A stretch of DNA of 64,000 nucleotides, taken from assembly GCA_002419505.1 (NCBI GenBank), contig DIGF01000033.1, positions 12,564 to 76,563 of the forward strand. Reading direction: 5' to 3'. The position numbers and the translations under genes were made by a program. This DNA is from Bacillales bacterium UBA5729. GTDB lineage: Bacteria > Bacillota_I > Bacilli_A > Izemoplasmatales > Hujiaoplasmataceae. Numbering within the stretch: position 1 is the stretch's first letter; each line of letters starts with the position of its first letter. A model generated the notes under the pieces. The model was not told where the DNA came from and made no database searches. It saw nothing but the letters and a program-made list of their open reading frames with translations. This document shows, piece by piece, positions 7,164-40,007 of this stretch.

Positions 7164-9728
7164 ATGAGAAAAACACAAAGAAAAACACAAAGAAAAACAC
7201 AAAGAAAAACAAGTTTAGCAAGAAGAATAGTCAGTTTAACGGTTTTTGTTGATATGATATTCTTGTTAATAATTGCCACAACCTTCCTTTTCTATATCTT
7301 TATAAGTATCAATCAAAACAAAGCAACGGTTGTTTCTAATCAAACACAAGCAATTGTCAACTCGACCGAACAATTTTTGAATGGAATAAAAAAGGACGCT
7401 GATTTACTAGCAACCAATGAAACTGTAATTGAATATTTAAAGTATGTCAATGCAGGTAATGATCCGATTATTTTAGAAACAGATCCTAATTATCACATTT
7501 ATTATGATTTTATCTTATTAACAAACGCAATTGTTAATCATCAAAACGAGGAAGCCTATGATTTGATTTTCTTAGCCACTGAGTTTAACTGTGAAACTGC
7601 CACAGATGGCTGTGCCATAACTAATACAGGCGCGTTGTTATATGAAACTTGGTTTATTTCCGAACGACCTTGGTATGTTAATTTAGGCACAAGAGAAGCT
7701 GCTTTAACCGAACCTTATATTGATGCTTTAAGTGGAGAATATACTTTCACCTATGTAGAAAGAATTTATGACAATGAAGAGTTTATCGGTTATATTGGAA
7801 TTGATATGTCATTGTTAAGTTTGGCTGATGTCTTTGATTTAATCGATCGTGAAATCAATGGACAGATAGCTGAAATAATGATTTTCATAAATTTTGAAAC
7901 CAATCCTACTCTGGCTTTCTATAGCAAAGAAATCTATGCTGATTATTTTATGGTACCACATACTGATTTTCAAAACATTGACGATAACTTAAACTATAGC
8001 GAAAACGGTATGTATAATTTAATTAGTAGTTATGAAGAAAATCAAGTAGTAACAAACAACTTTTTTGGTACTGAGTATCTTGTCACTTATAATAATCTCG
8101 ATGACTTTGGTTGGCATTTTGTAGTTTTAGTTGATAACACAATGATGTTTTCAATGGAAATTATCTTCATTATGCTGTTAGCCGTCATTACAATACTAAT
8201 ATATTTGACAAGCCTTTTGCTAAACAAAAGAATCAAGCGTTTACTAGCTCCGATTCATACAATTATCGATTCGCTTGAAGAAATCAAAAATGGTAACTAT
8301 AGTATTAGAGTTAATTTAGTCGAAAACAATGAAATCAAAGAAATCGGTGATGCGATAAATTTAATGTCAAGAGAGATTGAAAAGCAAGTTGATTTGGTAT
8401 ATGAAACCTTTGCTTATGACAGTTTAACAGGTTTAAAGAATATTAGTGCCGCCTCATTAGATATTAATAAATATGTCTTATCTGGTAATAGAAAAACAGC
8501 AATTTGTATTTTTCAGGTTGAAAATATTAAAAATATCAATATAATTAAAGGACAGATAGTTGGGGACAATCTCTTAAAAACAATTGCTTTAGAGCTTAAA
8601 ACCATCTTGGAAAACAGTGAATATATCTACGCTAATGGTCATGATGAATTTATTTATATTATGACTGGCGTTAATTCGCTAGAGCAAGTAGAAAATAATA
8701 TCAGTAAAATTCTAGCTCATTTTAAAGAACCATTGATTGTAAAGAATATAAAACTAGAAGTGAAATTCTATATCGGTATTGCAGTATATCCTAATGATGG
8801 TAGCATCCTTGACGACTTGGTAAAAAAGAGCGACACCGCATTATATAAAGCAAAACAAACCGGCAGTAAGCGCTATTTATTCTATAACGAGAACATCGCA
8901 AGAGAGATTTCGTATAAGGCACAAATCTCAGAACAACTCGGAAAAGTTATTGATAATAAAGAACTCTACTTAAAATATCAACCACTTGTCGATAACAAAA
9001 ACGAGCTCTATGGTTTCGAAGCTTTAGTTAGGTGGAATTCCCCGATACTTGGCGAAATATCACCAAATAATTTTATCACTAATGCCGAAGAAAACTATAT
9101 GATTGTACCAATTGGTAACTACGTTTTAAAAGAAGCTTGCTTTATGCAAGTAAGAATGAAAGAACTTTTCAAGAAAGAGTTCAACATCAGCGTCAATATT
9201 TCATCTATTCAATTAATGCAATTTGATTTTGTTGAAACTGTAAAGTCTATTATCAAAGAGACTGATATCAGCGCCGAGTATTTAACCTTAGAATTAACCG
9301 AAAGTGTCTTCTTGGATTCAACAGCAATGATTGAAGAAAAGATATCAGATTTGAAAGAATTAGGAGTAAAGTTCTCGCTTGATGACTTTGGTACTGGATA
9401 TGCATCCTTAACTTATTTAAGACAAATAGCTTTCGATAACATTAAAATAGATAAAAGCTTCATTGACGGAATCTTTGGTACTGAAAATGATCACAAGATA
9501 GTTGGCACTATAGTAAACTTGGTTCATAACCTTGATATGAAGGTTATAGCTGAAGGCGTTGAATCTAAACGACAATATGAATATTTAAAACAAATAGCAA
9601 CTGACGTTTTCCAAGGTTATATGATTTCAGAACCGCTGACAGAAGAAGCTATTCAAGCATTCATTAAGTTGTTTTATAAGATTGCTAAGGCTAGACGTAT
9701 TGATGTCCTTGCAACCAAATATGAATAG
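7164..9728 (+). CDS. membrane sensor protein: TM - Cache-like extracytoplasmic domain - TM - HAMP - GGDEF (A-site NGHDEF) - EAL (intact motifs), predicted c-di-GMP phosphodiesterase
   Basis: GGAG lies 8 nt upstream of the ATG. Cache-like signature: ERPWYVNLGTREAALTEPYIDALSGEYTFTYV. A second TM is followed by a HAMP-like segment (RLLAPIHTIIDSLEEIKNGNYSIRV...IGDAINLMSREIEK). The GGDEF position reads NGHDEF (8634-8651). EAL motifs are EALVRW (9018-), NIS, ELTES, DDFGTGYAS, KIDKSF, EGVES and QGY. Confidence 0.85.
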   Translation: MRKTQRKTQRKTQRKTSLARRIVSLTVFVDMIFLLIIATTFLFYIFISINQNKATVVSNQTQAIVNSTEQFLNGIKKDADLLATNETVIEYLKYVNAGNDPIILETDPNYHIYYDFILLTNAIVNHQNEEAYDLIFLATEFNCETATDGCAITNTGALLYETWFISERPWYVNLGTREAALTEPYIDALSGEYTFTYVERIYDNEEFIGYIGIDMSLLSLADVFDLIDREINGQIAEIMIFINFETNPTLAFYSKEIYADYFMVPHTDFQNIDDNLNYSENGMYNLISSYEENQVVTNNFFGTEYLVTYNNLDDFGWHFVVLVDNTMMFSMEIIFIMLLAVITILIYLTSLLLNKRIKRLLAPIHTIIDSLEEIKNGNYSIRVNLVENNEIKEIGDAINLMSREIEKQVDLVYETFAYDSLTGLKNISAASLDINKYVLSGNRKTAICIFQVENIKNINIIKGQIVGDNLLKTIALELKTILENSEYIYANGHDEFIYIMTGVNSLEQVENNISKILAHFKEPLIVKNIKLEVKFYIGIAVYPNDGSILDDLVKKSDTALYKAKQTGSKRYLFYNENIAREISYKAQISEQLGKVIDNKELYLKYQPLVDNKNELYGFEALVRWNSPILGEISPNNFITNAEENYMIVPIGNYVLKEACFMQVRMKELFKKEFNISVNISSIQLMQFDFVETVKSIIKETDISAEYLTLELTESVFLDSTAMIEEKISDLKELGVKFSLDDFGTGYASLTYLRQIAFDNIKIDKSFIDGIFGTENDHKIVGTIVNLVHNLDMKVIAEGVESKRQYEYLKQIATDVFQGYMISEPLTEEAIQAFIKLFYKIAKARRIDVLATKYE
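7167..7211 (+). repeat. 12-nt tandem repeat (agaaaaacacaa x3 plus a 9-nt partial copy) encoding (RKTQ)n at codons 2-16 of the GGDEF-EAL gene
   Basis: Read directly: units at 7167-7178, 7179-7190 and 7191-7202 are identical, and 7203-7211 is a partial copy. The unit length is a multiple of 3, so copy-number change stays in frame. Confidence 0.9.
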
Positions 9729-9737
9729 AGGTGAATT

Positions 9738-11240
9738 ATGGTTAATTTAATTTTTCTAGCGGATCAATCCTGGAGTACAGAACCTTGGGAGGTAGTAGTT
9801 GCAATTTTAGTAATATTGCTTACCTTGGTATGTTTATTTTTCCTTTACCGCAATGTTATTTTTAATTTTAAGAAGAATCGTCTTGAAAAAGAAAAAATGC
9901 AAGAAGATTTTAAAAAACAAGATGAAAATGGCATAGATAAAGTTAACGGTGACAATATCTCAAAGCATCCTTTATTGGCTGAAATAAACAAAGACATATC
10001 AGAGATTAAAGAGGGTGAATTAAGATTATTTTTTGCAATTAATATTGATAATTTTCGCTATATAGTTGATAGTTATGAACAAAAAGATATTGATAAAATT
10101 ATTGTTGAATATCTGAAGAGACTCAAAAAGTATGGCGACAAATATTCGATTGCTGGCCATTATGAAAAAGATATGTTCATTTACTATTACAAAGGTGAAA
10201 TTGACAATGACAAAATGAATTTTATTGCTAAGGATTTGCTTGGATTAATTGCTCAACCGTTAAAACTAGGTAATCATGAACTCACTGCTTCAATTGGAGT
10301 TTGTCTTTTCCCTTATGACGGCATTACCGCTGAAAACCTACTCAAAGATGCAGAAATTGCTGTTTACGTAGCAAAAAAAGAAGGAAAAAATCGCTTTTGC
10401 ATGTATTCAGAAAACTTAATCGAAAAAGAGCAGTTTAATATTGATTATTATAAACAAATAAAGAAATCAATTGAAAACGACGAATTTCTTTTGTATTATC
10501 AACCAATCGTTGATATTAGAACTGGAAAAATCATTGGTTTAGAATCACTACTTAGATGGCAACATCCAACTATGGGAATTCTTTCGCCGGGAAAATTCTT
10601 GAATGTCATGGATTTAACCGGAGATATTACTTGGTTTGGTATTTGGGGTTTTGAAAAAGTAGCTGAACAATATAATACTTGGAAAAAAAGTATTAAATTA
10701 GGGGACTTCTTTATTTCGATAAATCTTGGTCCAAAACAACTGTTTGTAGAAGGTTTAGCAAGACAATTTTTCGAGATTACTGGAAAGCAAGGTTTAAGTC
10801 CAGAAAACTTCTGTTTAGAAATTTTAGATTATTATGTAATTACCAACAATGATATTGCTCAACACAACTTAAAAGAATTTAGACGCTACGGGTTCCGTTT
10901 GGCGATTGACGATACTGGACCTGATTTTGCGGTGGCTAATGACATGAGCAAAATCAGTGCATCTATCTTTAAACTGTCTCGAGGTAATCTTTTACTAATC
11001 AATAGCGACGATGACGATGTAGCTAAAATCGAAAGAGTTATCCAAGCCGCTAAAGCTAATCAAAAGATAGTTATTGCTGAAGGGGTTGAGGATGAAAATA
11101 TGATTAGAATTCTTAATAAATGGGATATACGCTTTATGCAAGGATATTATTTCTCCGAACCGGTATCGGTAGAAGAAGCACAAAGAATGATGCATAAATC
11201 TCCATGGAATATGAGTTCATTCAACCATTTAGTAAAGTAA
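9738..11240 (+). CDS. single-TM protein with degenerate GGDEF-like domain and partly degenerate EAL domain (candidate c-di-GMP receptor or weak PDE)
   Basis: GAGGTG RBS ahead of the ATG. N-terminal TM: VVVAILVILLTLVCLFFLY. The GGDEF position reads GHYEKDMF (10155-10178). The EAL position reads ESL (10542-10550) followed by LRW. DDTGPDF replaces DDFGTG, and KLSRGN replaces K-x-D. EGVED and QGYYFSEP are retained. Confidence 0.8.
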   Translation: MVNLIFLADQSWSTEPWEVVVAILVILLTLVCLFFLYRNVIFNFKKNRLEKEKMQEDFKKQDENGIDKVNGDNISKHPLLAEINKDISEIKEGELRLFFAINIDNFRYIVDSYEQKDIDKIIVEYLKRLKKYGDKYSIAGHYEKDMFIYYYKGEIDNDKMNFIAKDLLGLIAQPLKLGNHELTASIGVCLFPYDGITAENLLKDAEIAVYVAKKEGKNRFCMYSENLIEKEQFNIDYYKQIKKSIENDEFLLYYQPIVDIRTGKIIGLESLLRWQHPTMGILSPGKFLNVMDLTGDITWFGIWGFEKVAEQYNTWKKSIKLGDFFISINLGPKQLFVEGLARQFFEITGKQGLSPENFCLEILDYYVITNNDIAQHNLKEFRRYGFRLAIDDTGPDFAVANDMSKISASIFKLSRGNLLLINSDDDDVAKIERVIQAAKANQKIVIAEGVEDENMIRILNKWDIRFMQGYYFSEPVSVEEAQRMMHKSPWNMSSFNHLVK

Positions 11241-25354: not shown

Positions 25355-25383
25355 TTGACAAATAGATTTGACTATAATATAAT
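25355..25383 (+). promoter_or_regulatory. sigma-A promoter of the riboswitch-led locus
   Basis: TTGACA 25355-25360, a 17-nt spacer, then TATAAT 25378-25383. A second overlapping TATAAT sits at 25373-25378. The exact TSS is uncertain relative to the proposed P1 helix. Confidence 0.6.
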
Positions 25384-25458
25384 CAACTTGTAAATAGCAA
25401 AACTAGCGAAAGTTAGTGACGCAAAGCTATAGGGCCTTCGATAGATGGTAGCCAGTTG
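25384..25458 (+). promoter_or_regulatory. c-di-GMP-I (GEMM-I) riboswitch aptamer
   Basis: GCAAAA (25397-402). Hairpin ACUAGC-GAAA-GUUAGU (25402-417) with a GNRA loop. GACGCAAAGC (25418-427). CUAU/AUAG helix (25427-30 / 25441-44). GGUAGC (25447-52). Possible P1 is CAACUUG (25384-90) pairing with CAGUUG (25453-58). The order and spacing match my memory of the GEMM-I consensus and the Vibrio Vc2 aptamer. Confidence 0.8.
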
Positions 25459-25488
25459 CCGTTATCTTTTAAAGATGAGGGCATTTTT
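25458..25488 (+). terminator. intrinsic terminator forming the riboswitch expression platform
   Basis: GCCGUUAUCU / AGAUGAGGGC stem (one G-G mismatch, one G-U pair) with a 5-nt loop, then AUUUUU (25483-88). Its 5' arm abuts the aptamer 3' end. Confidence 0.65.
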
Positions 25489-25595: not shown

Positions 25596-26360
25596 ATGAG
25601 CCAAAAAGTTAAATTAGCTAGTCATATTGTAAATGCCTCTAAGGCCGCAAAAATCGCTAAAGCAAGTCGTCTTGGCATTGTCGTAAGCGCCGTCCTCGTC
25701 TTTCTAATCTTCTCGATTTCCTACTATGGGACGATGGTTGGTAATTTCACCTTCAGTGTTGACGGTTTCGCAAGAGATGCAGGCATTACCATGTATGAAT
25801 ACGCAGATAGAAAAGAGTTTAGAACAAGAATAGTTTCTGAAAAAGTTGAAGACAACCATGGAATGACAGGTTACTGTGGGACTGAGTATTATGATGGTTC
25901 CTACGGTGAGGAAGTATGTATTCCTGATGATGATGTATTAGGAGTAGATGGTCCTAACAACGGCGAATCTTACATCGCACACACATTTTATGTTGAAAAT
26001 GCCGGCGATTACATGATTGACCTAAGCGCAACGATTAATATTTTATCTGCAGTTAGAGGTGCAGAAGAAGCTCTAAGAGTACGGGTGATCATTAACGGTG
26101 TTGGAGTTACTTATGCTAAAGTTCAATCTGAAAGAGGAGTATCGCCTGGAGAATTAGAACCCTTGACAGAAAGTTTTTACAGTATTGATAAAGTCTTTTA
26201 CCAAGAATTTCTAGAAATGGATGTTGGAGAATTTATCAAAGTTACAGTGGTTGTATGGTATGAAGGAACAGACGCCGATCATACAAATGATTTATTTGGA
26301 GGCGGAATAAAATTAGACATGAAATTTTCAGTCACAAATGTTTACAAAGATAGGCTTTAA
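25596..26360 (+). CDS. TasA/camelysin (M73)-like protein, paralog 1, with an N-terminal signal-anchor
   Basis: N-terminal TM then GTMVGNFTFSV (compare the SipW-type G-T-x-A-x-F-x-D region). FYVENAGDYMIDL strand motif. C-terminal NDLFGGGIKLDMKFSV resembles the TasA ..NKYQGNSIKLQFSFEA ending. Confidence 0.65.
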   Translation: MSQKVKLASHIVNASKAAKIAKASRLGIVVSAVLVFLIFSISYYGTMVGNFTFSVDGFARDAGITMYEYADRKEFRTRIVSEKVEDNHGMTGYCGTEYYDGSYGEEVCIPDDDVLGVDGPNNGESYIAHTFYVENAGDYMIDLSATINILSAVRGAEEALRVRVIINGVGVTYAKVQSERGVSPGELEPLTESFYSIDKVFYQEFLEMDVGEFIKVTVVVWYEGTDADHTNDLFGGGIKLDMKFSVTNVYKDRL

Positions 26361-26418: not shown

Positions 26419-27363
26419 ATGAAAAATTTAAGAAACAAAGTGATTCTTTCAGGAATCGTATTACTATTTGCGTTTATCGCAACAATTGGTTCGACTTATG
26501 CATGGTTTACAGTTTCATCAACGGCTACAGTCAGTGAGATAACATTAAACGTTCAAGCTGAAGAAAACTTGTTGATAAAAATTGTACCATATAATGAAGG
26601 ATCAGGGACTTTTGCGCCTGATTATAGTCTAAACCCTGCAGGATATCAATCTGCAGTTACGCTTGCGCAATTACAAACAGCTGGATATTTGCCTACTGGA
26701 ACCCCTTGGAGATTATTGCCTTCAACAGTTTTTGCAACAGATGAAGCTACTCATGATGATATCAACGAAAGGGTACTCCACTATCTTGGAGATCCTACCG
26801 ACAGTTTAAGAACTTTAGTAGCTGCTCCATTTAATAACGGATCAAGTGGTAGATATGTTCAACTTCAATTCATTGTTATGCAGCAATCAGACATTCCTCA
26901 AGCTCTTGAAATGAGAACAATTAGAATTTCCGCTTCTTATGGTGTTGGAGATGCTAGAAATAACATTGCTGAAGCAGTTAGGTTATCTGTATGGGGAGAT
27001 GACACGGGTTATCTTGGTCATGACACAGAATACACTCCTTTAATTGGAGCTCCTTTAACCTTTGGTAGAGACTCGGATTTTGCTTATTCTTTTGCTGGAA
27101 GAACAGGTTTTACATTTACCAATTTGGATACTATAGCTCAAATTCGTGATGGAATATCCCCACTATATCCAACAGTTATTGATATATATGATGGTTCTTC
27201 ATGGGTTGATCCAGTTCAAGATGTATTCATTTTACAACCGAATGCTCCTACATTAATTACCGTTAATATTTACATAGAAGGTTGGGATGAACAAGCAGAT
27301 AACTACATTATTGGTGCTGAATTTGATATTTCATTCGCCTTCACAATTGGAAGTATTGATTAA
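26419..27363 (+). CDS. TasA/camelysin (M73)-like secreted protein, paralog 2 (likely major subunit)
   Basis: AAAGGAG RBS. The signal peptide ends in IGSTYAWFTVSSTATVSEITLNV (camelysin: GGTFAYFSD...GTLDL). The C-terminus is IYIEGWDEQADNYIIGAEFDISFAFTI. It is followed by a strong hairpin. Confidence 0.7.
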   Translation: MKNLRNKVILSGIVLLFAFIATIGSTYAWFTVSSTATVSEITLNVQAEENLLIKIVPYNEGSGTFAPDYSLNPAGYQSAVTLAQLQTAGYLPTGTPWRLLPSTVFATDEATHDDINERVLHYLGDPTDSLRTLVAAPFNNGSSGRYVQLQFIVMQQSDIPQALEMRTIRISASYGVGDARNNIAEAVRLSVWGDDTGYLGHDTEYTPLIGAPLTFGRDSDFAYSFAGRTGFTFTNLDTIAQIRDGISPLYPTVIDIYDGSSWVDPVQDVFILQPNAPTLITVNIYIEGWDEQADNYIIGAEFDISFAFTIGSID

Positions 27364-27394: not shown

Positions 27395-27425
27395 AACATA
27401 ACTTAGGCTTGTCCTAAGTTATGTT
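27395..27425 (+). terminator. 13-bp perfect stem-loop without U-tract (partial terminator or mRNA stabiliser) after paralog 2
   Basis: aacataacttagg-cttgt-cctaagttatgtt, followed by accttatggg. It lies in the only long (207-nt) intergenic gap of the locus. Confidence 0.45.
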
Positions 27426-27570
27426 ACCTTATGGGTAAATAACCAAATTATATGGTTTAAATTTAAAATAACCAACATTTTTTGGCCATTTCTCAATTTC
27501 CTGATGAAAAAAAGATTAATCTGCTATATAATAGTATGATGTAAGTCTTTTTAGATGAGGAGTGAATTAG

Positions 27571-28272
27571 ATGATGAAAATCGCATTACACAAAGACAAG
27601 GTAAAAAAAATATTAAATATTACTTTTTACGTTGTGATATTTATTGTTTTTGTATACGCAATATTTGGGCTTTTTTCTAAAAAAGAAGGTAACTCTATTT
27701 CTTTTTTAGGTATAACGTCAATGTCAGTACAATCTGGATCAATGTCACCTACTTTTGAAGAAGGAGATTTGATCTTCGTTAAAACTGACTTTAATCCTAG
27801 AGACTTAGTCGAAGGTGATGTTATCACTTACCAAGATTTTAGAATGACAGAAAACGGAATTGTATCCTATTATAACACTCATAGAATTGAAGATATTGAT
27901 AAGAGTGGTACGGTATGGCGATTTATTACCAAAGGTGATGCTAATGCCGAAAATGATCCAAGACAATTATTAGAAAACGAAATCTATGGTGTTTGGACTG
28001 AAAGGTCATGGGCAAAATTTGGTGGTTTCATTGATAATTTTACTAACTTTTTAAAATCAAGTTTGGGATTTTTCCTATTTATTGTTGTGCCATGTTTGGC
28101 TTTACTAGTTTATGAAGTTATTAAATTTATGAAAGTTTATGCAGAATATAACGTTCAAAAACATACCCATGACAGAGTTAAGATGCAAGAAGAAGCGTTA
28201 GCTCAAGCTAGAGCACAACTCGAAGCGGAAGCGAAATCCAAGGCGGATGGTGTAGAACCGAAAAAAGAATGA
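27571..28272 (+). CDS. sipW: signal peptidase I, ER/archaeal type (SipW-like), copy 1
   Basis: GAGGAG RBS. N-terminal TM, catalytic box QSGSMSPTF, His box NTHRIEDI and KGDANAEND box. A C-terminal TM plus a charged tail, as in SipW. Confidence 0.85.
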   Translation: MMKIALHKDKVKKILNITFYVVIFIVFVYAIFGLFSKKEGNSISFLGITSMSVQSGSMSPTFEEGDLIFVKTDFNPRDLVEGDVITYQDFRMTENGIVSYYNTHRIEDIDKSGTVWRFITKGDANAENDPRQLLENEIYGVWTERSWAKFGGFIDNFTNFLKSSLGFFLFIVVPCLALLVYEVIKFMKVYAEYNVQKHTHDRVKMQEEALAQARAQLEAEAKSKADGVEPKKE

Positions 28273-28307: not shown

Positions 28308-29948
28308 ATGAAAGAATTTTCAGCGTTTTACGTTGACCTTTTTATCGAGATATGGAATGATATAGTATTTTTCTTTAGAGATGCTATTTGGAATAATATA
28401 ATAAAACAATTCTTTAGAAACGTAATCTCATACTGGAATCTTTTAATGGAAGATTCCGTTTTGTACGAGTTTAATACTTTATCATGGATTATGGTTGTGG
28501 TGGCCGCCCTTCTCAACATTACCTTAATCATTTTTATCGTTTTAAGAATCTATTTATGGATTAAAAAATATCTTTCTTTTAGAAGAATTGAAATTGAAAA
28601 GAATGAACTTATCGAAGAAATCGCCGAACTAAATGAAAAAGTTATCGATTTAATCGATGAAAAGAATCAAATATTAGCTATGAAAGTTAGTCAATTAGGA
28701 ATTAATGCCAGAACTGGTGAAAGCGGAGAAGTTTATTATGCAAATGCAAATAAGCCAGGTTTACAACCAGCCTTTGGACAAGCCGGTACAGGTGGAGTTA
28801 ACTCTGGAGTTGTACCACTCAGTTCAGGCGATGGTTCTAGTCCGATAAATCCTGCTGGACCATCAAGATTCGTTAAATTAATTCAAGTTGATAAAGAATA
28901 TGCTGGTAAAGACACTCATATTTATATGGAAGATAGTGATTATGTCGCCTTACCAGAACTAGTAACGAGATTTGTTAATTTCGCCGCTTCACAGTTAAAG
29001 TTATACTATACACCAAGAATGGTTTCTTATTTCTTTGCTGGTATGGCTGCTTCAAAAATTATTATTCTAGAAGGTATCTCCGGTACAGGGAAAACCTCAT
29101 TACCATATGCTATGGGTAAGTTTTTCGATAATCCAGCTGCGATGATTTCAGTTCAACCGGCTTGGCGTGACCGCGCGGAAATCTTAGGATACTTAAATGA
29201 GTTTACTAAAAGATTTAATGAAACTGATTTCTTAAAGAACCTCTATGAAGCAATTTATAGAAAAGATGTAAATTTAATTGTTTTAGATGAGTTAAACCTT
29301 GCGAGAATTGAGTACTATTTCGCTGAGTTTTTATCAATCATGGAAATGCCAGATCCAAATGAATGGAAAATTGACCTTGTCCCAGATTCAAAACCATCTG
29401 ATCCGTTAAAAGTAATTAATGGAAAAATAACTGTTCCACTTAACATTTGGTTTGTTGGTACTGCAAATAAAGATGACTCAACATTTACGATTACTGATAA
29501 GGTTTATGACCGTGCTATCTCATTAGAATTTGACTCTAAAGGTGAATATTTCCAAGCGCCAGATACTAAGCCAATTCACATTTCTAGCGCTTACTTACAA
29601 GAGTTATTCGATGAAGCTTATTATAAGTTCCCAATTAGTGAAGAAACACTTAATAACTTTAAAATCTTAGACAAGTATATTCAAGCGCATTTTAGAATCG
29701 CTTTTGGTAATAGAATCATGACTCAAGTTTATAAGTTTATTCCAGTTTATGTTGCCTGTGGTGGTACTGAACTTGACGGCTTAGATTATATCTTCGCTTA
29801 TAAAGTTTTACGTAAATTTGAGAGTTTAAATTTGGCATTTTTGCAAAATGAACTTAACGAATTAATTAATCAAATTAAAAAGATTTTTGGTAAGAACAGC
29901 TTTGAAGAATCGATTAATTTTATTAAAAACCTACAAAAATTAGTTTAG
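28308..29948 (+). CDS. membrane-anchored McrB-like AAA+ (AAA_5 clade) NTPase
   Basis: TM at about 28479-28566 followed by KKYLSFRR, then a coiled coil, then a Gly/Pro-rich linker. Walker A is GISGTGKTS (29073-29099). VQPAWRDRAEILGYLN. Walker B/sensor block is LIVLDELNLARIEYYFAEFLSIME (29274-29339). WFVGTAN. Confidence 0.75.
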   Translation: MKEFSAFYVDLFIEIWNDIVFFFRDAIWNNIIKQFFRNVISYWNLLMEDSVLYEFNTLSWIMVVVAALLNITLIIFIVLRIYLWIKKYLSFRRIEIEKNELIEEIAELNEKVIDLIDEKNQILAMKVSQLGINARTGESGEVYYANANKPGLQPAFGQAGTGGVNSGVVPLSSGDGSSPINPAGPSRFVKLIQVDKEYAGKDTHIYMEDSDYVALPELVTRFVNFAASQLKLYYTPRMVSYFFAGMAASKIIILEGISGTGKTSLPYAMGKFFDNPAAMISVQPAWRDRAEILGYLNEFTKRFNETDFLKNLYEAIYRKDVNLIVLDELNLARIEYYFAEFLSIMEMPDPNEWKIDLVPDSKPSDPLKVINGKITVPLNIWFVGTANKDDSTFTITDKVYDRAISLEFDSKGEYFQAPDTKPIHISSAYLQELFDEAYYKFPISEETLNNFKILDKYIQAHFRIAFGNRIMTQVYKFIPVYVACGGTELDGLDYIFAYKVLRKFESLNLAFLQNELNELINQIKKIFGKNSFEESINFIKNLQKLV

Positions 29949-29958
29949 GAGGTCCATT

Positions 29959-31500
29959 ATGGATGAAGGAACCGCTAAACGTTATTACAAAAAAATTAAT
30001 ACGACTTTTCAAGGTGTAAATAAGCTTGATGATTTCGCCAAGCAGTATTTAAACCTTCTTGAAAGTTCAAAAATTGAACTTTATCAAAAAGAAAGACGAG
30101 AAAGAAGAATCTTTGATGATTCATGGTTGTCTAATATTGAAGGAATTTTACCAATACTTGATAAACTTACTAGAAATCCAAAAGAAAGCTTAAAGAAAGT
30201 AACTGAAGTTGTGCCTGTAGAACGAGCGAAAAAAATTGATTCAGGTACAATTAGACACTTAGCAGCTAACACACAGTTAATTAAAAAAACCAATAATAAA
30301 GGCGAAATTCAACCTTCTAAATTACTTACAAGTTTTTCTGAATCAGAACTAGGAACCTATGAAAACAGATTTTTAATGACCTTAGTTGACAAGATTTTTA
30401 CATTTATTGAGATTAGATATAAACTCATCAATCGGAAGATGAATACTGAATATGTTAATTTCTTGAAAGTAAATTCAGAAATTGAGTATCAAAGTGCATT
30501 AATTCATTATGATATTACTTTAAAAATTAATCGTAATATGGAGGAAGATGCTGTTTGTAAAAAAAATCAAGAATTATTTGATCGAATGAAAGATTTAAGA
30601 GATGGTATTAGAAACTATAAAAACTCTTCTTTCATGAGGCAGATGTCAGGCTTTCCACCAATTAGACCACCAATTATGAAAACCAATATTATTATGAAGA
30701 ATATTGAATTCATTCAATGTTATGATTTGTGGATGTTTATGGATACAGTCGATAGAGTTGGGTATGAAGTAGATGTATTTGAACGTGACGTTAAATTTGA
30801 TGAAGAGTATATTCGTCAAATTGAAAACACAATGTTAGTCCTTTATGCTACAGTAGCTAATAATCAAACTGAAGAATTCTCTTTATCTCATGAAAATCCT
30901 TTTACATATCGTAAAGTAAAAACACCAAGAGTTCTTACAAAAGTTGACGAAGACAGATATTTAGAATCAGCGGAATTCTTGATTAAAGATGAAACTTTAA
31001 ACCAATATTTCCTAGAACAAATCAGAAAAGATAACGTCGAAAGATATAATACACTTATTGAAGCTGGAATTCCTAAGGATAAAAGCATAGATATAATCCA
31101 TCGAAAACTTTTGGAAATCGCTGATGGAGCTTTTAAAGACTTTATCAATTACACTTTCAACCCTGAAATTGAGAAAGATTTAAATAAAAAAATAGATGTT
31201 CAAAACGAAATTTTAAAAGTATATCGAGATATTGAAAAAGTTAAACGCGAAAACATTAAAGATTTAGAAACAGAAAAAGCTCTTGCTTTATTAGCTCTCA
31301 ATAACTATCGAGAAGAATTAAACAATAGAATCGCTAAACAAAAAGCGGACATAGAAGCTAAAAAAGCGGAAGAAAGAAGATTAAAGCTTCAAAGACAAAA
31401 AGCTATTGCTCAAGAACGCGCAGCAAAAAAGAAGAAAATCGATCGTGCAAAAGAATTGTTAGAAAAAGCTGAAAGAGCTAGAAAATTACAAAATAAATAA
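29959..31500 (+). CDS. soluble partner protein of unknown family with a Lys/Glu-rich C-terminal coiled coil
   Basis: Starts 10 nt after the AAA+ gene with a GGAGGT RBS. No TM. The C-terminal ~110 aa are heptad-like and highly charged (KQKADIEAKKAEERRLKLQRQKAIAQERAAKKKK...). I could find no nuclease motif. Confidence 0.7.
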   Translation: MDEGTAKRYYKKINTTFQGVNKLDDFAKQYLNLLESSKIELYQKERRERRIFDDSWLSNIEGILPILDKLTRNPKESLKKVTEVVPVERAKKIDSGTIRHLAANTQLIKKTNNKGEIQPSKLLTSFSESELGTYENRFLMTLVDKIFTFIEIRYKLINRKMNTEYVNFLKVNSEIEYQSALIHYDITLKINRNMEEDAVCKKNQELFDRMKDLRDGIRNYKNSSFMRQMSGFPPIRPPIMKTNIIMKNIEFIQCYDLWMFMDTVDRVGYEVDVFERDVKFDEEYIRQIENTMLVLYATVANNQTEEFSLSHENPFTYRKVKTPRVLTKVDEDRYLESAEFLIKDETLNQYFLEQIRKDNVERYNTLIEAGIPKDKSIDIIHRKLLEIADGAFKDFINYTFNPEIEKDLNKKIDVQNEILKVYRDIEKVKRENIKDLETEKALALLALNNYREELNNRIAKQKADIEAKKAEERRLKLQRQKAIAQERAAKKKKIDRAKELLEKAERARKLQNK

Positions 31501-31528
31501 TAGAAATTTAAAAAAAGAGGTGATGGAA

Positions 31529-32119
31529 ATGAAAAAACGGTTTATGCTATCGCTAACAGCGTTAATAGCATCTGCTGCTTTATTTGTTATTGCCTCTTTT
31601 GCTTGGTTTGTTTTAAGCACTTATTCACCTGTTGACACTATTCCTGGAGGAACCAAGGGGGTATTATATGATTTAGGTGGAGAGTTTATAATTGGAAGTG
31701 TTATTTATCCTGAACTTGAACTTTTAAGCGAAGATATATCAATCACGAGCTATTCAACAGAAAGTCTATATTTAAGAATTAAGATAGTATATTTAAGAAT
31801 TAATGTTAATTATATTGATTCAGAGTATGTAGTTTCATCTCCCACAATAGACATATATAGTGACAATTTTAATGATGAACATTTATCAGTAATCCTTAAT
31901 TCAAATTTCTTTTATGAGAGCGATGAGTATTGGTATTATGACGAATTAATTTATGGTGATTCTGTTACACACACCTTAATAACTTCGCTTTATTATGATG
32001 GTTTCAAAGCTAGTAACGAGTATGCCACTGAACCTTTAAGCATAAGCATAATTCTTGAAGTAAGCACTGGTGAAGATGGTGTATGGGATCCGCTCACTAC
32101 CTTAACCACAACCACGTAG
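31529..32119 (+). CDS. TasA/camelysin-like secreted protein, paralog 3 (small)
   Basis: GAGGTG lies 6 nt upstream of ATG 31529. The signal peptide ends IASFAWFVLST. The C-terminal NEYATEPLSISIILEV resembles the family ending. Thr-rich tail. Confidence 0.6.
   Translation: MKKRFMLSLTALIASAALFVIASFAWFVLSTYSPVDTIPGGTKGVLYDLGGEFIIGSVIYPELELLSEDISITSYSTESLYLRIKIVYLRINVNYIDSEYVVSSPTIDIYSDNFNDEHLSVILNSNFFYESDEYWYYDELIYGDSVTHTLITSLYYDGFKASNEYATEPLSISIILEVSTGEDGVWDPLTTLTTTT
31767..31803 (+). repeat. 21-nt-period direct repeat (tatatttaagaattaa x2) inside paralog 3
   Basis: 31767-31782 and 31788-31803 are identical. They encode LYLRIKI / VYLRINV. Confidence 0.8.
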
Positions 32120-32135
32120 TATAAATAGGAGTAAA

Positions 32136-32744
32136 ATGAAAACTGTCTTAAAGAAAGTAATATTTGCTTTGCCGTTTGTATTTATCGGTTTGGCCATGAT
32201 AATGATGGTTCAGTTAGGTATCTCATTGAAAAACAATGAAGTACCTAATATTTTTAATCGCGCCATGTTATACGTTAAAACACCATCAATGGAAGATACG
32301 ATTATGGCTGGAGACTTAATTTTTATCAATGTTAAAGACAGAGACTTCTATGAAGAAGATATCATTAGTTTTAGAAGACCTGATAAACCGGAGATAATTA
32401 TTACCCACAGAATTGTAAATATAGATGGTGATTTAATTACCACAAAAGGAGATAACAACTACACCTCAGAAACCTGGGAAATAAACTTTTCTAAGGATTT
32501 TGTTTTGGGTTCTTATGTAGGGAAATCAAGTTTATTAGGGTCTGTTTACGAAGTTTTATTTTTAAACAGTTTAAATGTTTTGTTTGGACTGATTACTGTC
32601 GTGTTTTTGCTTATTGGGGTAATTGAAATGAGAAATATTATTAAACTGCTTTCTCAGAAAAAAGCAGCTGAAATTGAAGCGGAAAAGCAACAAATGATTG
32701 AAGAATATAAAGAAAAAATAAAAAGTGAGAAGGAACAAAAATGA
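32136..32744 (+). CDS. sipW: signal peptidase I, ER/archaeal type (SipW-like), copy 2
   Basis: N-terminal TM, Ser box KTPSMEDTI, His box ITHRIVNI, TKGDNNYTSE box, and a C-terminal TM plus a charged tail. Confidence 0.85.
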   Translation: MKTVLKKVIFALPFVFIGLAMIMMVQLGISLKNNEVPNIFNRAMLYVKTPSMEDTIMAGDLIFINVKDRDFYEEDIISFRRPDKPEIIITHRIVNIDGDLITTKGDNNYTSETWEINFSKDFVLGSYVGKSSLLGSVYEVLFLNSLNVLFGLITVVFLLIGVIEMRNIIKLLSQKKAAEIEAEKQQMIEEYKEKIKSEKEQK

Positions 32745-33532
32745 GAGCAATCATCCTAGCAAGCGGCTCACAAGCTAATGTTACTTATTTAGAAATTGGT
32801 GAGAGTAAAATTTTAATCGACTGTGGCTTAAGCTATAGACAAATCGTTTATCGTTTAAAAGAACATAATAAAAATCTCGATAACTTAAACGCAGTTTTCA
32901 TCACTCATGAACACGCTGATCACGTTGCGGGTTTGAGAGTGTTAGCTAAAAATCACAAGATGAAAATTGTCCTTAGCGAAGGCACTTATCAAGGGTTAAA
33001 TAAAAGGTTTTTAGGTGAGATCGATGAAGAATTATTTCTGATAGTCAAGAGCTTGGAAAGCTTTGAATTTGGTGATTTTCAAGTTTTGCCTTTTGCAACT
33101 TATCACGACGCAGTTGAACCTTTCGGCTATCGCTTTATTGAAGAAAATCGATCATTGGTATATATGACTGACACCGGATATTTCCCAATTAAATACTATG
33201 AATATCTAAAAGATGCGGATTGCTATATCGTCGAAAGTAACCATGAAGTGGAAATGCTTTTAGAGAGTGCGAGACCTTGGCTTTTAAAAAGGAGAATTCT
33301 AGATGATGAAGGTCATTTGTCAAATGAAGATAGTGCGAATTTAATTTTAAATCTTGTTGGTGAAAGAACTAAACAAATCGTTTTAGCACATCTCTCTCAA
33401 GAATGCAATTTAGAGAGAGTAGCTTTAGAAACATATGAAAAAGTTTTCCTAGAACAAGGCATAGATATTAAGAATTATCGAATTTGTGCAGCTAATCAAA
33501 ATCATTCAACTGATGAAATCATTATTGAATGA
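32741..33532 (+). CDS. MBL-fold metallo-hydrolase (YycJ/WalJ-like)
   Basis: ITHEHADHVAG (HxHxDH) motif. About 263 aa. Its ATG overlaps the sipW-2 TGA (ATGA). Confidence 0.85.
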   Translation: MRAIILASGSQANVTYLEIGESKILIDCGLSYRQIVYRLKEHNKNLDNLNAVFITHEHADHVAGLRVLAKNHKMKIVLSEGTYQGLNKRFLGEIDEELFLIVKSLESFEFGDFQVLPFATYHDAVEPFGYRFIEENRSLVYMTDTGYFPIKYYEYLKDADCYIVESNHEVEMLLESARPWLLKRRILDDEGHLSNEDSANLILNLVGERTKQIVLAHLSQECNLERVALETYEKVFLEQGIDIKNYRICAANQNHSTDEIIIE

Positions 33533-37249: not shown

Positions 37250-37409
37250 GATTGAAATTTTACGGGTTTAGCGCTATAATTAGTAGAAGATTTTTTAAAA
37301 CTTCGAATATTAAGTGAGCATTTTATGAAATCGTCTAAAAAAGGTTTTAATTTATCGATCATTTGTTATATAATATATAAGATACTTGAATTTAAAGGAG
37401 TTAATAAAA

Positions 37410-40007
37410 ATGCGATTATTTACTAAAAGAATTACTTATTTTACGCTAACCCTGATACTAGGATTAGTTTTAGTTGCTTGTGGTGGCAAGACAACGACTG
37501 ATGTAGCACCTGAAAATTTATTAATCCCACAATTGACTAATCCGGAAGCGATTTATTATCAAACTGATGATTTTAATATCACATACCGTGATTTGTATAA
37601 TAGCCTGAAGATTAATGATGGTTTAAACCAATTGTTAGCGATGGTTGATACTGACTTGTTAAAAGATTATATCGATCAAGTTACTCAAGACCAAATTAAT
37701 AAGAAACGCGAAAAATTAACTTTCGGAACTAATGATGCGGAAATTATCGAATCATTTGGTGAAGAGCGCAGAGCTGAATATATCCAAAACTTTGAAGAAT
37801 CACTCTTTCTTATGGGATATGAAACAGACATCGATGATTATATTCGTTTAGTTTTAGCAAGAGAACAATATTCAACTGATCTAATGTTAAGCGAAGCTTC
37901 AGTTGATGAAACTTGGCATGTTGGTCCGAAACAAATAGCTAACTATTACGATATAACTTATCAAAAAGACATTCAATCAATAAAGATTAAGTTCTTATCA
38001 GAAAATGATGCTAAAACAGTTATGAGAACATTTAATTTAGTCACCAGAAGTGGCCAGTTAATGTTATATACCGGAACTAAACCTCTAGCGGAAGTTCCTT
38101 CATTTGAACTGAATGAAACCAACACACAAACATTAAATGACGAAGAACTTCTAAGTTACTTTATTCAAATGTATAATTACGTTTATCAGGATATTAAAGA
38201 TCAATTATCTGAAACAGCTACTGTTGAAGAGTTGATTAACAATCCTGATTTAACTCAAGTTTTTAAAGATATCAAAGCCTTTAATAACAACTTAGCTAAT
38301 TTCATGTTCTTAACATTAGGGAATTATGAAGATTTCACTTCTGAAGAAGATGAAGTTCCATATTACACTTATCGTCCAGAGAAATTTTTCTCAGGAAGCG
38401 ACACAGCTTATTACATGATTCTTAATTTAACTGGTACAGAAAAAGCTGATGTAAAAGATTTTGATGGTACAAAAGTTGAACTTATCGAACTAATCGGTGA
38501 AGACAAGTATAACGAAATCGAAACTGAAATCATCAATAATAACCTAAGTTCTCAAACTTTTGTTACAAGAAGAATCGCTGATTTAAGAAGAGAACACGAT
38601 TTTGTAATTTATGATTATTACTTAACAATTGACTATAAATCAATCGACACAAGATATGTAGCACATGAAGAAGGAAGTTTAACAAAAGTTGCTTCTTATG
38701 ATGATAAGACAATCACACCAGACCAATTATTAACTTATGCGCTTAACCGTAACGCTGCGATGTATTTAATTTACTCGGCTCAGTATAAAGCTGTTATGGC
38801 TGCTCACTATGAAAATGTTTACTGCTTAAATACGAGTTCTTGTGAATATGATTACCGACAAAACGAATCGGCTAAAATGCTCGAACATGTCATCGAATTC
38901 AATAATATGAAAACTCAATTCCTTGAAAGCATGTATTCAACTTATTACACATTTGATGAGTATCTATATCTAGCATATGGTGTTAAAAGCGAAGAAGAAA
39001 TGATTAAGAACTACTATGTAAAATCTACACTTCAACCGATTTACATCTTTGATAATATTATCAAGAACGATTACGAAATCTTAAATGACGTTTTAGACAT
39101 CATGGACGGATATTATGAGAATTATTTCAGTTTGAAAGCAAACCACATTTTAATCTATCTAGACCGTGATGAAAATGGTTCACCTGATAATTACGAAGAT
39201 TTTTATGAAGGTTTAGAAGATACGACTGCATATGACGCTAAATTAGCTGCTTTAGAACTAGCGATAAGAGAATATTTAGCGATTGAAGACAACACTATGG
39301 CTAAATTAGTTAGTGAATATAAACTAGCAAGTAGAGATAATGAAACTTGGGGAGAATTCAAAAGATATGGTTTCTTCTTACTAACAGAAAACCTTTCAGC
39401 AACCACTTCGTTAACTTTCACTTCTACAATTAACAAATTTGAAAGAAGTTTTGTGGATGCCTTAGTTGAAATTTATCAAGAATATAAGTTAGAAGAAAAT
39501 ATTGATAAGAATTTTATATTCAACGATACTTTAGTTGAAACTTCATATGGGTTGCATTTGATTAAAGCTGAAAAAGGCACTAATTTTGATATGCCAAACG
39601 CGAAGTTTACGATGACTTATAATGATGATAATGAACCTAACTTTACAGTTGGTTTAGAAAACGAAGAAGACCACATCAGTTTCGAACAACTTAAAATCTA
39701 TGCGCAATATCGTTTTACAGTCATCGCTTTTGGAACGGTTAATATCAGCGAATTATATGGTTTTACCAGACCTACTATTCCGACTTCAGTTAATAATGCC
39801 TTGAAAGAGTTTGCGACTTCATTGCATGATGCATTATATGTTGTTGGTTTTATGAACATTGGTATTATTGAAGAATTAAAAGCTGGAGACTTCATTAACA
39901 GTCAATCTCAATATTCAAATGTAAGTGAAACTGATTTGATCAATACGATGAATAGAATCAGCGAAATCTATTTCCGTCAAATATATGCCGAACTAGATCA
40001 AAGATAA
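37410..40007 (+). CDS. large PrsA-like foldase lipoprotein with a C-terminal parvulin-type PPIase domain
   Basis: AAGGAG lies 9 nt upstream of ATG 37410. Lipobox LVACGG. The parvulin-like block runs from LKANHILIYLD to ETSYGLHLIKAEKG. Confidence 0.7.
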   Translation: MRLFTKRITYFTLTLILGLVLVACGGKTTTDVAPENLLIPQLTNPEAIYYQTDDFNITYRDLYNSLKINDGLNQLLAMVDTDLLKDYIDQVTQDQINKKREKLTFGTNDAEIIESFGEERRAEYIQNFEESLFLMGYETDIDDYIRLVLAREQYSTDLMLSEASVDETWHVGPKQIANYYDITYQKDIQSIKIKFLSENDAKTVMRTFNLVTRSGQLMLYTGTKPLAEVPSFELNETNTQTLNDEELLSYFIQMYNYVYQDIKDQLSETATVEELINNPDLTQVFKDIKAFNNNLANFMFLTLGNYEDFTSEEDEVPYYTYRPEKFFSGSDTAYYMILNLTGTEKADVKDFDGTKVELIELIGEDKYNEIETEIINNNLSSQTFVTRRIADLRREHDFVIYDYYLTIDYKSIDTRYVAHEEGSLTKVASYDDKTITPDQLLTYALNRNAAMYLIYSAQYKAVMAAHYENVYCLNTSSCEYDYRQNESAKMLEHVIEFNNMKTQFLESMYSTYYTFDEYLYLAYGVKSEEEMIKNYYVKSTLQPIYIFDNIIKNDYEILNDVLDIMDGYYENYFSLKANHILIYLDRDENGSPDNYEDFYEGLEDTTAYDAKLAALELAIREYLAIEDNTMAKLVSEYKLASRDNETWGEFKRYGFFLLTENLSATTSLTFTSTINKFERSFVDALVEIYQEYKLEENIDKNFIFNDTLVETSYGLHLIKAEKGTNFDMPNAKFTMTYNDDNEPNFTVGLENEEDHISFEQLKIYAQYRFTVIAFGTVNISELYGFTRPTIPTSVNNALKEFATSLHDALYVVGFMNIGIIEELKAGDFINSQSQYSNVSETDLINTMNRISEIYFRQIYAELDQR

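Follow-up and report, generated by a model that had tools for sequence, protein, structure and literature searches.

A membrane-tethered McrB-like NTPase and its nuclease-less partner, encoded between two SipW-type signal peptidase genes, most likely serve surface-fibre assembly or release in wall-less bacteria

What does a McrBC-type gene pair do when its nucleoside triphosphatase (NTPase) carries a membrane anchor and its partner has no recognizable nuclease? The question is raised by a 64,000-nt stretch of DNA from Bacillales bacterium UBA5729 (contig DIGF01000033.1, positions 12,564-76,563, forward strand), called the window here, to which all coordinates below refer. Two adjacent genes on its + strand encode a McrB-like AAA+ NTPase of the NxD clade (gene D, 28308..29948, 546 aa according to the open reading frame (ORF) list) and a McrC-like partner (gene E, 29959..31500, 513 aa) that starts 10 nt past the stop of D. 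A first-pass annotation had described this pair and offered two alternatives for it, a McrBC-like motor turned to the remodelling of membranes or fibres and a membrane-associated defence system. The description stands, and of the alternatives the first is favoured by genomic context while synteny, conservation and mobility speak against the second; the SipW-type signal peptidase genes on both flanks, the likely substrates, the cyclic di-GMP (c-di-GMP) riboswitch and the name CoCoPALM were missing from the annotation. The pair is most likely a GTP-driven, membrane-tethered module for the SipW-dependent assembly or release of surface fibres, not for restriction or defence, and we put the probability that it is CoCoPALM, a GTPase module of McrBC descent with a link to fibres or secretion, at roughly 60%. 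The detailed mechanics set out further below deserve much less confidence than this general statement.

Gene D begins with an acidic, aromatic N-tail (28308-28478; 57 residues, net charge -4), followed by a transmembrane (TM) helix (28479-28562, residues ~58-85 by Kyte-Doolittle hydropathy), a coiled coil (28581-28697, residues 92-130), a Gly/Pro linker that is disordered in the AlphaFold2 (AF2) model (28698-28862, residues 131-185) and the AAA+ domain (28863-29945), all on the + strand. The TM segment is the single strong one in the protein (residues 61-79, score 3.08) and is directly followed by KKYLSFRR, as the first-pass annotation had it; hydropathy and the AF2 model likewise bear out its claim that TM helix, coiled coil and linker take the place of a DNA-binding N-domain, and residues 1-185 match no DNA-binding family. 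Because the N-tail has a net charge of -4, the positive-inside rule favours a predicted N-out/C-in topology, with the tail outside and the NTPase inside. The AF2 model, built from a 26-sequence family alignment (mean pLDDT 65), contains helices at residues 2-52 and 57-129 and an alpha/beta domain from ~186 onwards. Across the same alignment, residues W28, N38, Y42, S59 and W60 of the N-tail and TM edge are invariant, as is the segment EIEKNELIEEIA..EKNQI. The AAA+ core is extremely conserved, with long invariant runs that include GISGTGKTS and LIVLDELN in all 26 members.

The motif strings on which the McrB-like call had been based are all in place: the ORF holds GISGTGKTS (Walker A, 29073-29099), LDELN (Walker B, 29283-29297), VQPAWRDRAEILGYLN and WFVGTANKDDST, together with the signature NKDD (29466-29477). 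Profile comparison of the D family with E. coli McrB agreed with the call (hhalign probability 95.1%, E 2.9e-8), covering Walker A, Walker B and signature over 175 columns, and E. coli McrB was also the best match of a PDB sequence search, at E 0.013. Pfam family AAA_5 was matched by 23 of the 26 family members; the window protein itself had no AAA_5 match in Pfam and only a weak one to AAA_22. A fold search with the D model returned RavA, McrB, dynein and Mg-chelatase, all weakly (E 1e-4 to 1e-3). Taken together, these comparisons indicate a kinship of D to McrB that is real but distant. More distant relatives were sought using HMMER against 1.84 billion cluster representatives, and 726 clusters below 1e-30 matched D only over residues ~185-545, at ~34-67% identity (mostly 40-50%); at the N-terminus, these relatives have coiled coils of ~400 aa, one TM anchor or polytopic membrane domains. 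Of the 150 representatives listed, in which the signature was read, only 4 lack a recognizable Walker A, and 35 lack DExN. The window protein reads N387-K-D-D-S-T, and position N+2 is Asp in every motif-bearing representative (127/127), with N+3 being Asp in 93, Glu in 28 and another residue in 6. An Asp at N+2 is what defines the NxD clade of McrB-like GTPases (Bell et al., eLife 2024; PMC11090510), no enzyme of which has been characterised according to the same source. By its motifs, D is thus an NxD-clade McrB-type AAA+ NTPase, with one TM helix tethering the predicted enzyme to the membrane. One of the distant relatives, with a polytopic membrane N-terminus (P0283 at locus L084, 8001-11513), is paired with a 501-aa downstream partner, and this pair is divergent to an exopolysaccharide locus encoding Wzz, a ParA-like kinase and glycosyltransferases; neither a SipW gene nor a riboswitch was found in its surroundings.

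Gene E occupies the position of McrC, and the expectation of the first-pass annotation for it was borne out in each part. The protein passes the Pfam DUF2357 (PF09823) cut-off over residues 28-162 (34.2 bits against 23.3), as do 19 of the 29 relatives that make up the E family. Family comparison with the CnuC-like DUF2357 proteins of plasmid CoCoNuT-like operons gave an hhalign probability of 97.4% (E 1.4e-11) over residues 67-268, including the motifs YENR (30358-30369, +, containing R137) and TNI..Y..LW, which are invariant and common to both groups. We assign residues ~28-268 (30040-30762, +) to the McrC N-terminal or finger domain. A comparison of the E family with E. coli McrC itself gave no signal using hhalign, so that the link of E to McrC rests on Pfam DUF2357 and the CnuC-like proteins. 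The alignment with the latter ends at residue 268, before the C-terminal part that carries CxxC motifs in CoCoNuT. Beyond a helical middle part, E ends in a Lys/Glu-rich helix (31180-31494, +; residues 408-512), modelled as one helix by AF2 (pLDDT 69); 49% of its last 113 residues are K/R/E/D, in agreement with the ~110-aa Lys/Glu coiled coil described earlier, and the tail is longer in some relatives. The hydropathy scan found no TM segment in E. The absence of a PD-(D/E)xK motif noted in the first pass extends to nuclease families in general, none of which was found in E or its 29 relatives by Pfam, nor in E by PDB sequence or fold search. The fold search against the PDB returned nothing below E 0.45 with a model that is weak (pLDDT 69), and a nuclease in E appears to be either absent or beyond recognition, a cryptic inactivated fold being compatible with such a model. 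Based on these comparisons, D and E are best described as a McrB/McrC-derived pair in which a predicted membrane anchor stands in place of the DNA-binding domain.

The genomic setting of the pair was compared across species-representative genomes, a scan of which for D relatives gave 359 candidate stretches; 80 distinct loci were kept, and the locus counts below rest on these, with only informative loci counted in each case. In 57 of 62 loci, fewer than 400 nt separate the end of an upstream SipW-type gene from D, and in 71 of 72 the DUF2357 partner follows D after a gap of fewer than 400 nt; a second SipW gene is encoded no more than 5.5 kb downstream of D in 43 of 46. Full-length homologues of D are 50-89% identical to it and were found in Candidatus Izemoplasmatales (63-89%) and Acholeplasmatales (~52%), including Acholeplasma laidlawii 8195, and the arrangement is common to both orders. 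Given full-length homologues at these identities and relatives in 359 stretches, the D/E observation is not due to chance. A D relative of only 44% identity (locus L082) also lies between two SipW genes, with GGDEF and EAL genes adjoining. The A. laidlawii cluster (locus L066, 4310-15387) is expanded, with three SipW-type genes, at least six proteins carrying an AW[FLV] motif and a 757-aa partner. D and E keep a fixed place in a cluster that follows a c-di-GMP-I riboswitch, flanked by two catalytically intact SipW peptidases and by genes whose products carry a TasA-like signal motif.

In the window, the genes between 25596 and 33532 are all on the + strand and tightly packed in the ORF list. 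The peptidase upstream of D (gene C, 27571..28272, +) is a SipW-type, that is archaeal/ER-type, signal peptidase I with 93.3 bits to TIGR02228 (cut-off 51.85) and has two TM helices followed by a 44-aa charged cytoplasmic tail. Its paralogue downstream of E (gene G, 32136..32744, +) passes Peptidase_S26 at 31.6 bits (cut-off 22.9), reaches 48.4 bits to TIGR02228, just below the cut-off, and has a 31-aa cytoplasmic tail rich in Lys and Glu. A tally of 48 cluster peptidases (46 from related loci and the two of the window) found the catalytic Ser and His in all 48 and the Asp in 46, and as these residues are kept, the SipW proteins are probably true, catalytically intact peptidases and not inactive assembly chaperones. 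Nearly all of them carry, after the second TM helix, a helical tail of 26-62 aa with 35-70% charged residues that is cytoplasmic by topology; with the D coiled coil, the E helix and both SipW tails, four proteins of the cluster have charged helices on the predicted cytoplasmic face.

Candidate substrates of the two peptidases are encoded on either side of the pair. Gene B (26419..27363, +) encodes a secreted protein of 314 aa with the signal motif GSTYAWFTVS and a C-terminal EGWD that is common to its family, and is a candidate for the major fibre subunit; gene F (31520..32119, +; secreted, 199 aa, signal motif ASFAWFVLS) is a candidate minor subunit. Each cluster has 1-5 ORFs whose signal peptide carries x-T-[FY]-A-W-[FILV]-[TS] at its end, and the B family is present in 1-3 tandem copies in relatives. 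B matches no Pfam family and has no PDB relative by sequence, and its database relatives come from Izemoplasmatales and Acholeplasmatales only, all annotated "hypothetical protein". Weak matches of B and F to Cry1Ac domain III and Mfa2 were read as no more than a hint of beta-sandwich-like composition. The cluster is always headed by gene A (25596..26360, +), which encodes a signal-anchored (type II) membrane protein of 254 aa with a TM segment at residues 26-44 and an outside domain of ~210 aa; it is 50-78% identical in Izemoplasmatales and 24-32% in Acholeplasmatales, has neither an AWF motif nor a Pfam or NCBIfam match, and is a candidate for the fibre base or anchor. A 13-bp perfect inverted repeat in the gap between B and C (27395..27425, on neither strand in particular) may form a transcript-end or attenuator hairpin; it has no U-run on the + strand. 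It is followed by a promoter-like site (27504-27532), and differential expression of the presumed major subunit is possible.

The cluster is preceded by a regulatory leader on the + strand. A sigma-70-type promoter (TTGACA-17-TATAAT, 25355..25383) matches the consensus at 12/12 positions, and both hexamers are kept in seven aligned Izemoplasmatales leaders. The c-di-GMP-I riboswitch aptamer (RF01051, 25386..25463) follows 3 nt past the promoter and ends 132 nt before gene A; it matches the full-length model with 64.1 bits (gathering cut-off 35, E 3.2e-10). Directly 3' of it, a terminator-like hairpin with a U-run (25457..25488) forms the putative expression platform; the hairpin has an ensemble probability of 0.97, can coexist with the aptamer and shows no variation in its stem columns across the seven leaders. 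Of the 14 other SipW-linked clusters surveyed, 13 likewise have a c-di-GMP-I riboswitch upstream (14/15 including the window), and the A. laidlawii cluster has one at 45.8 bits. In one Acholeplasmataceae genome, four tandem aptamers precede the cluster and an extra copy stands before distal secreted-protein genes. Two to four tandem aptamers, with one more copy within the cluster ahead of the distal secreted-protein genes, occur in some Acholeplasmataceae; aptamers were located in L075 (4047-4484, 12853-12928), L053 (3146-3368, 13113-13190) and L063 (24-244, one copy there being the GGC variant RF03167). Some 14 kb before the cluster, the window holds two adjacent GGDEF-EAL genes (7164-9728 and 9738-11240, +), the first encoding a protein with dCache and HAMP sensor domains, so that c-di-GMP turnover enzymes are encoded near the riboswitch-controlled cluster. 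Directly upstream of them is a 2280-aa ORF (317-7159, +) with a lamin-tail domain as its sole Pfam match, probably a large surface protein. The proposed antiterminator was 6.7 kcal/mol worse than the minimum free energy structure, and folding did not fix the direction of the switch (ON or OFF).

The family to which such a locus belongs has been named. Bell et al. introduced CoCoPALM in one paragraph, describing an NxD GTPase fused to an FtsB-like domain of TM helix and coiled coil, suggesting that its peptidase-family proteins act as pilus assembly factors, and deferring the analysis to a later publication (PMC11090510). Our literature search found neither such a publication nor any other use of the name. 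The window has the NxD McrB-like GTPase with TM helix and coiled coil, coiled coils on both homologues and genes of the signal peptidase family, and thus agrees with the published description in every contextual and architectural respect; the FtsB homology alone was not reproduced. Where the paper suggested assembly factors, the retention of Ser, His and Asp points to probable true peptidases. The c-di-GMP riboswitch, the Mycoplasmatota hosts, the intact catalytic residues, the charged tails, the substrate motif and the core-gene behaviour in wall-less bacteria are absent from the CoCoPALM account and new here; the CoCoNuT paper has no mention of c-di-GMP, riboswitches or Mycoplasmatota (PMC11090510), and the literature search found no link of a c-di-GMP-I riboswitch to Acholeplasma.

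The descent of D and E also brings in the second alternative of the first-pass annotation, a system at the membrane that descends from CoCoNuT/McrBC and acts against phages or by abortive infection, in which the ring would sense infection and trigger an effector, either a metallo-beta-lactamase (MBL)-fold hydrolase or the secreted proteins. Like canonical McrBC of E. coli and Thermococcus gammatolerans, the pair has an AAA+ domain with Walker A, Walker B, signature Asn/Asp and Arg finger, and a partner with a DUF2357 finger domain encoded immediately downstream; unlike it, D is without a DNA-binding N-domain, E is without PD-(D/E)xK, the NTPase is predicted to be membrane-tethered and the signature is NxD, not NxxD. 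The resemblance to CoCoNuT (CnuB/CnuC) is closer. The D core is ~36-48% identical to relatives that have a ~400-aa coiled-coil N-terminus or lie in plasmid CoCoNuT-like operons, these operons holding its nearest relatives, E aligns to CnuC-like proteins, and the N-x-D-[DE]-S-T signature is common to both. CoCoNuT, however, has long soluble coiled coils, extra nuclease, HEPN or helicase genes and a CnuC C-terminus with Zn-ribbon or nuclease fold, and occurs on plasmids, whereas the present cluster is TM-anchored, has a short coiled coil, is linked to SipW and secreted substrates, is chromosomal and syntenic, and contains no nuclease or helicase gene by Pfam or NCBIfam.

Conservation and mobility bear on the choice between defence and a cellular role. 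Defence genes are usually patchy and fast-evolving. Median identities to the window across 25 loci were 78% for PFOR, 68% for D, 52% for E, 51% for the upstream SipW and 35% for B, the fastest-evolving gene of the cluster, and housekeeping flanks are shared across Izemoplasmatales (hydrolases upstream, the MBL gene and PFOR downstream). Beyond PFOR lies an 873-aa ORF (37386-40007, +) that has no Pfam match and is conserved at 45-56% in several related loci. Among 72,556 plasmid and 50,697 phage records, none covered 80% or more of D, and thus none holds the full-length architecture; only AAA+ core matches were obtained (identity up to 41%, coverage up to 61%), the best of them to plasmids with four-gene CoCoNuT-like operons. 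Three such plasmids, from Rhodoferax, Deinococcus and Polaromonas (L087-L089), have a conserved order of a large AAA-domain protein, a hypothetical protein, an AAA ATPase of ~800 aa and a DUF2357 protein, which fits the published CoCoNuT layout. A PADLOC check for a defence system, as the first-pass annotation had proposed, gave one of the two PDC-M26 components only: D matches candidate PDC-M26A at E 1.9e-36, but over the AAA+ core only (profile positions 305-433 of 724), and no cluster protein matches the second component. Being confined to the AAA+ core of one component, the match was rejected as evidence of defence. As D is nearly as conserved as PFOR, the flanks are shared, no plasmid or phage record holds a full-length match and the PADLOC match is limited to the core, the cluster behaves, on the genomes compared, like a vertically inherited cellular function and not like a mobile defence island.

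The MBL-fold hydrolase (gene H, 32741..33532, +; Lactamase_B_2, E 7e-26) is one candidate effector of a defence reading, and its gene overlaps the stop of gene G by 4 nt. It is syntenic in Izemoplasmatales but missing from the clusters of Acholeplasmatales, its membership in the system is doubtful, and it may be either an unrelated housekeeping enzyme or a cluster accessory. Its PADLOC hits were generic MBL-motif matches only, and it was set aside as the missing nuclease effector, not being linked in Acholeplasmatales clusters. To our knowledge, neither c-di-GMP riboswitch control nor a fixed linkage of signal peptidase and substrate is a feature of known defence systems, and we counted both against this explanation. 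Despite the McrBC ancestry of both proteins, we therefore consider defence improbable.

If the cluster serves the cell surface, as we favour, its closest functional parallels are TasA-SipW-TapA of Bacillus and BsaA-SipW of Clostridium perfringens. As in these, a dedicated archaeal-type SipW is encoded beside its substrates, and the Ala at P1 and Phe at P2' of the substrate TasA (PMC10269814) are shared, the motif here being T-[FY]-A↓W-F. Several paralogous subunits with a membrane-anchored accessory protein, and a model of growth from the base, are further points in common with the TasA/BsaA operons (PMC11580942). Unlike them, this cluster has no detectable subunit homology, two peptidases with charged tails, an embedded NTPase pair, a wall-less host and a riboswitch. 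A mention of McrB in the C. perfringens BsaA paper (PMC11580942) proved to be an E. coli strain genotype only. A second comparison can be drawn with machines that do use an NTPase: in the type IV pilus and archaellum, a hexameric NTPase (PilB, FlaI) is coupled via membrane parts to a signal peptidase and membrane-held subunits. This is an analogy of function only, as D belongs to the McrB clade of AAA+ proteins and not to the secretion ATPase superfamily; moreover, a SipW-type peptidase acts outside, unlike the cytoplasmic-face prepilin peptidase, and no PilC-like platform gene was found in the cluster by Pfam or NCBIfam.

A working mechanism can be outlined from these parts. B and F would be exported by Sec and kept in the membrane by their signal peptides. 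SipW would cut after T-[FY]-A, producing a beta-prone W-F-T-x-S N-terminus that might, as in TasA/BsaA, serve as a complementing strand for the next subunit, while the gene A protein may anchor the fibre to the membrane of the wall-less cell. For the BsaA fibre, growth from a membrane-anchored base has been described, with SipW cleavage proposed as the release step (PMC11580942). Six D subunits would assemble into a cytoplasmic ring that their coiled coils suspend from the membrane, and the finger domain of E would plug its pore and stimulate GTP hydrolysis one site at a time, with the invariant R137 of YENR as the candidate stimulatory basic residue; in McrBC, the pore of McrB is occupied by the finger of McrC and hydrolysis is sequential, which has been likened to the rotary F/V-ATPases (PMC7680126). 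The peptidases may be tied to the ring by charged helices, namely those of E and the two SipW tails, together with the D coiled coil. Sequential hydrolysis could then, via the TM helices of D and its conserved outside N-tail, gate or pace cleavage, polymerisation or release. In its fullest form, this would make CoCoPALM a new class of surface-filament machine, with the D hexamer as stator, E as rotor or plunger, and GTP hydrolysis acting through coiled-coil contacts with the SipW tails and through the TM helices, so that non-TasA subunits are cleaved and polymerised (or released) step by step. The wall-less Izemoplasmatales and Acholeplasmatales would then have a surface organelle under c-di-GMP control as part of their core equipment, and a McrBC motor would for the first time be known in a cellular role outside defence. 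We regard this extended version as speculative and, tentatively, as the less probable outcome.

The same architecture could be read without mechanical work, the D/E GTPase being a signalling switch that reports the outside state inward or toggles SipW. Such a role would suit the short conserved outside N-tail of D, joined through one TM helix to a cytoplasmic NTPase, as well as the finding that McrC acts on McrB like a GTPase-activating protein (PMC7680126) and that TasA-/BsaA-type polymerisation needs no energy (PMC11580942). It is also consistent with a second, paralogous cluster in the genome of Mycoplasmatota strain zrk2 (CP076020.1; locus L048, 4692-10947), which works without an E of its own; this cluster contains a riboswitch, A, B, SipW, a D that is 59% identical and two F-like genes. 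However, an AAA+ hexamer whose pore is filled by a partner has the build of a mechanically cycling machine (PMC7680126), a full catalytic cycle is suggested by how extremely the AAA+ core is conserved, with its long invariant runs, and neither D nor E has an output domain such as a kinase, helix-turn-helix or GGDEF domain. On balance, a pure switch seems unlikely.

Another possibility is that D and E form a cell-division or membrane-remodelling factor of wall-less bacteria, FtsB-like in its combination of TM helix, coiled coil and NTPase, and that the SipW and secreted-protein genes serve a separate function. The N-terminal domain was stated to be homologous to FtsB by Bell et al. (PMC11090510), and core-gene behaviour in the wall-less Izemoplasmatales and Acholeplasmatales would be expected of such a factor; the distant relatives with polytopic membrane N-termini that adjoin exopolysaccharide genes point to envelope functions in general. 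In our hands, none of the 26 D-family members matched the DivIC/FtsB family of Pfam (PF04977) at E values up to 0.1, and hhalign gave 1% probability against E. coli FtsB, a TM helix with a coiled coil being a generic architecture. Incidental neighbours would not show so tight and so old a linkage to SipW (57/62 and 43/46 loci, and kept in the 44%-identical relative), and control by c-di-GMP fits a facultative surface trait better than division. We consider this explanation very unlikely.

Several observations weigh against the CoCoPALM fibre interpretation and account for our restraint. TasA-type fibres need no cytoplasmic energy source, and the need for a GTPase is thus unexplained. No homology of B and F to TasA, camelysin or BsaA was found in Pfam, NCBIfam or a PDB profile search; A likewise had no match, and one of 15 B-family members reached E 0.04 to Peptidase_M73. 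The role of B and F as fibre subunits is accordingly inferred from signal motif, paralogue number and context. Should the riboswitch act as an OFF switch, expression of the cluster would fall to conditions of low c-di-GMP, an unusual pattern for a fibre of adhesion or biofilm formation. The second zrk2 cluster has no DUF2357 partner, and the FtsB homology on which the naming paper drew was not recovered by Pfam or hhalign, both of which are weak tests. The AF2 models are modest (pLDDT 65 for D, 69 for E), E having no significant fold match; papers on cultured Izemoplasmatales report no surface fibres, and CoCoPALM members are known from genes alone.

The locus has consequences for annotation as well as for biology. 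About 360 species-level genomes list these genes as "hypothetical protein" or "DUF2357", and scans of the PADLOC type may flag the AAA+ gene D as a defence candidate. Acholeplasma laidlawii is cultivable and, since it also carries the full cluster (L066), the question is testable there, with the c-di-GMP riboswitch as a direct experimental handle. If the interpretation is true, it would ask why the assembly of a fibre outside the membrane needs cytoplasmic GTP hydrolysis, a question that TasA-type fibres do not pose. It would also mean that McrBC, a GTP-driven restriction motor, was recruited from defence for cell-surface biogenesis, with both of its nucleic-acid-handling parts lost.

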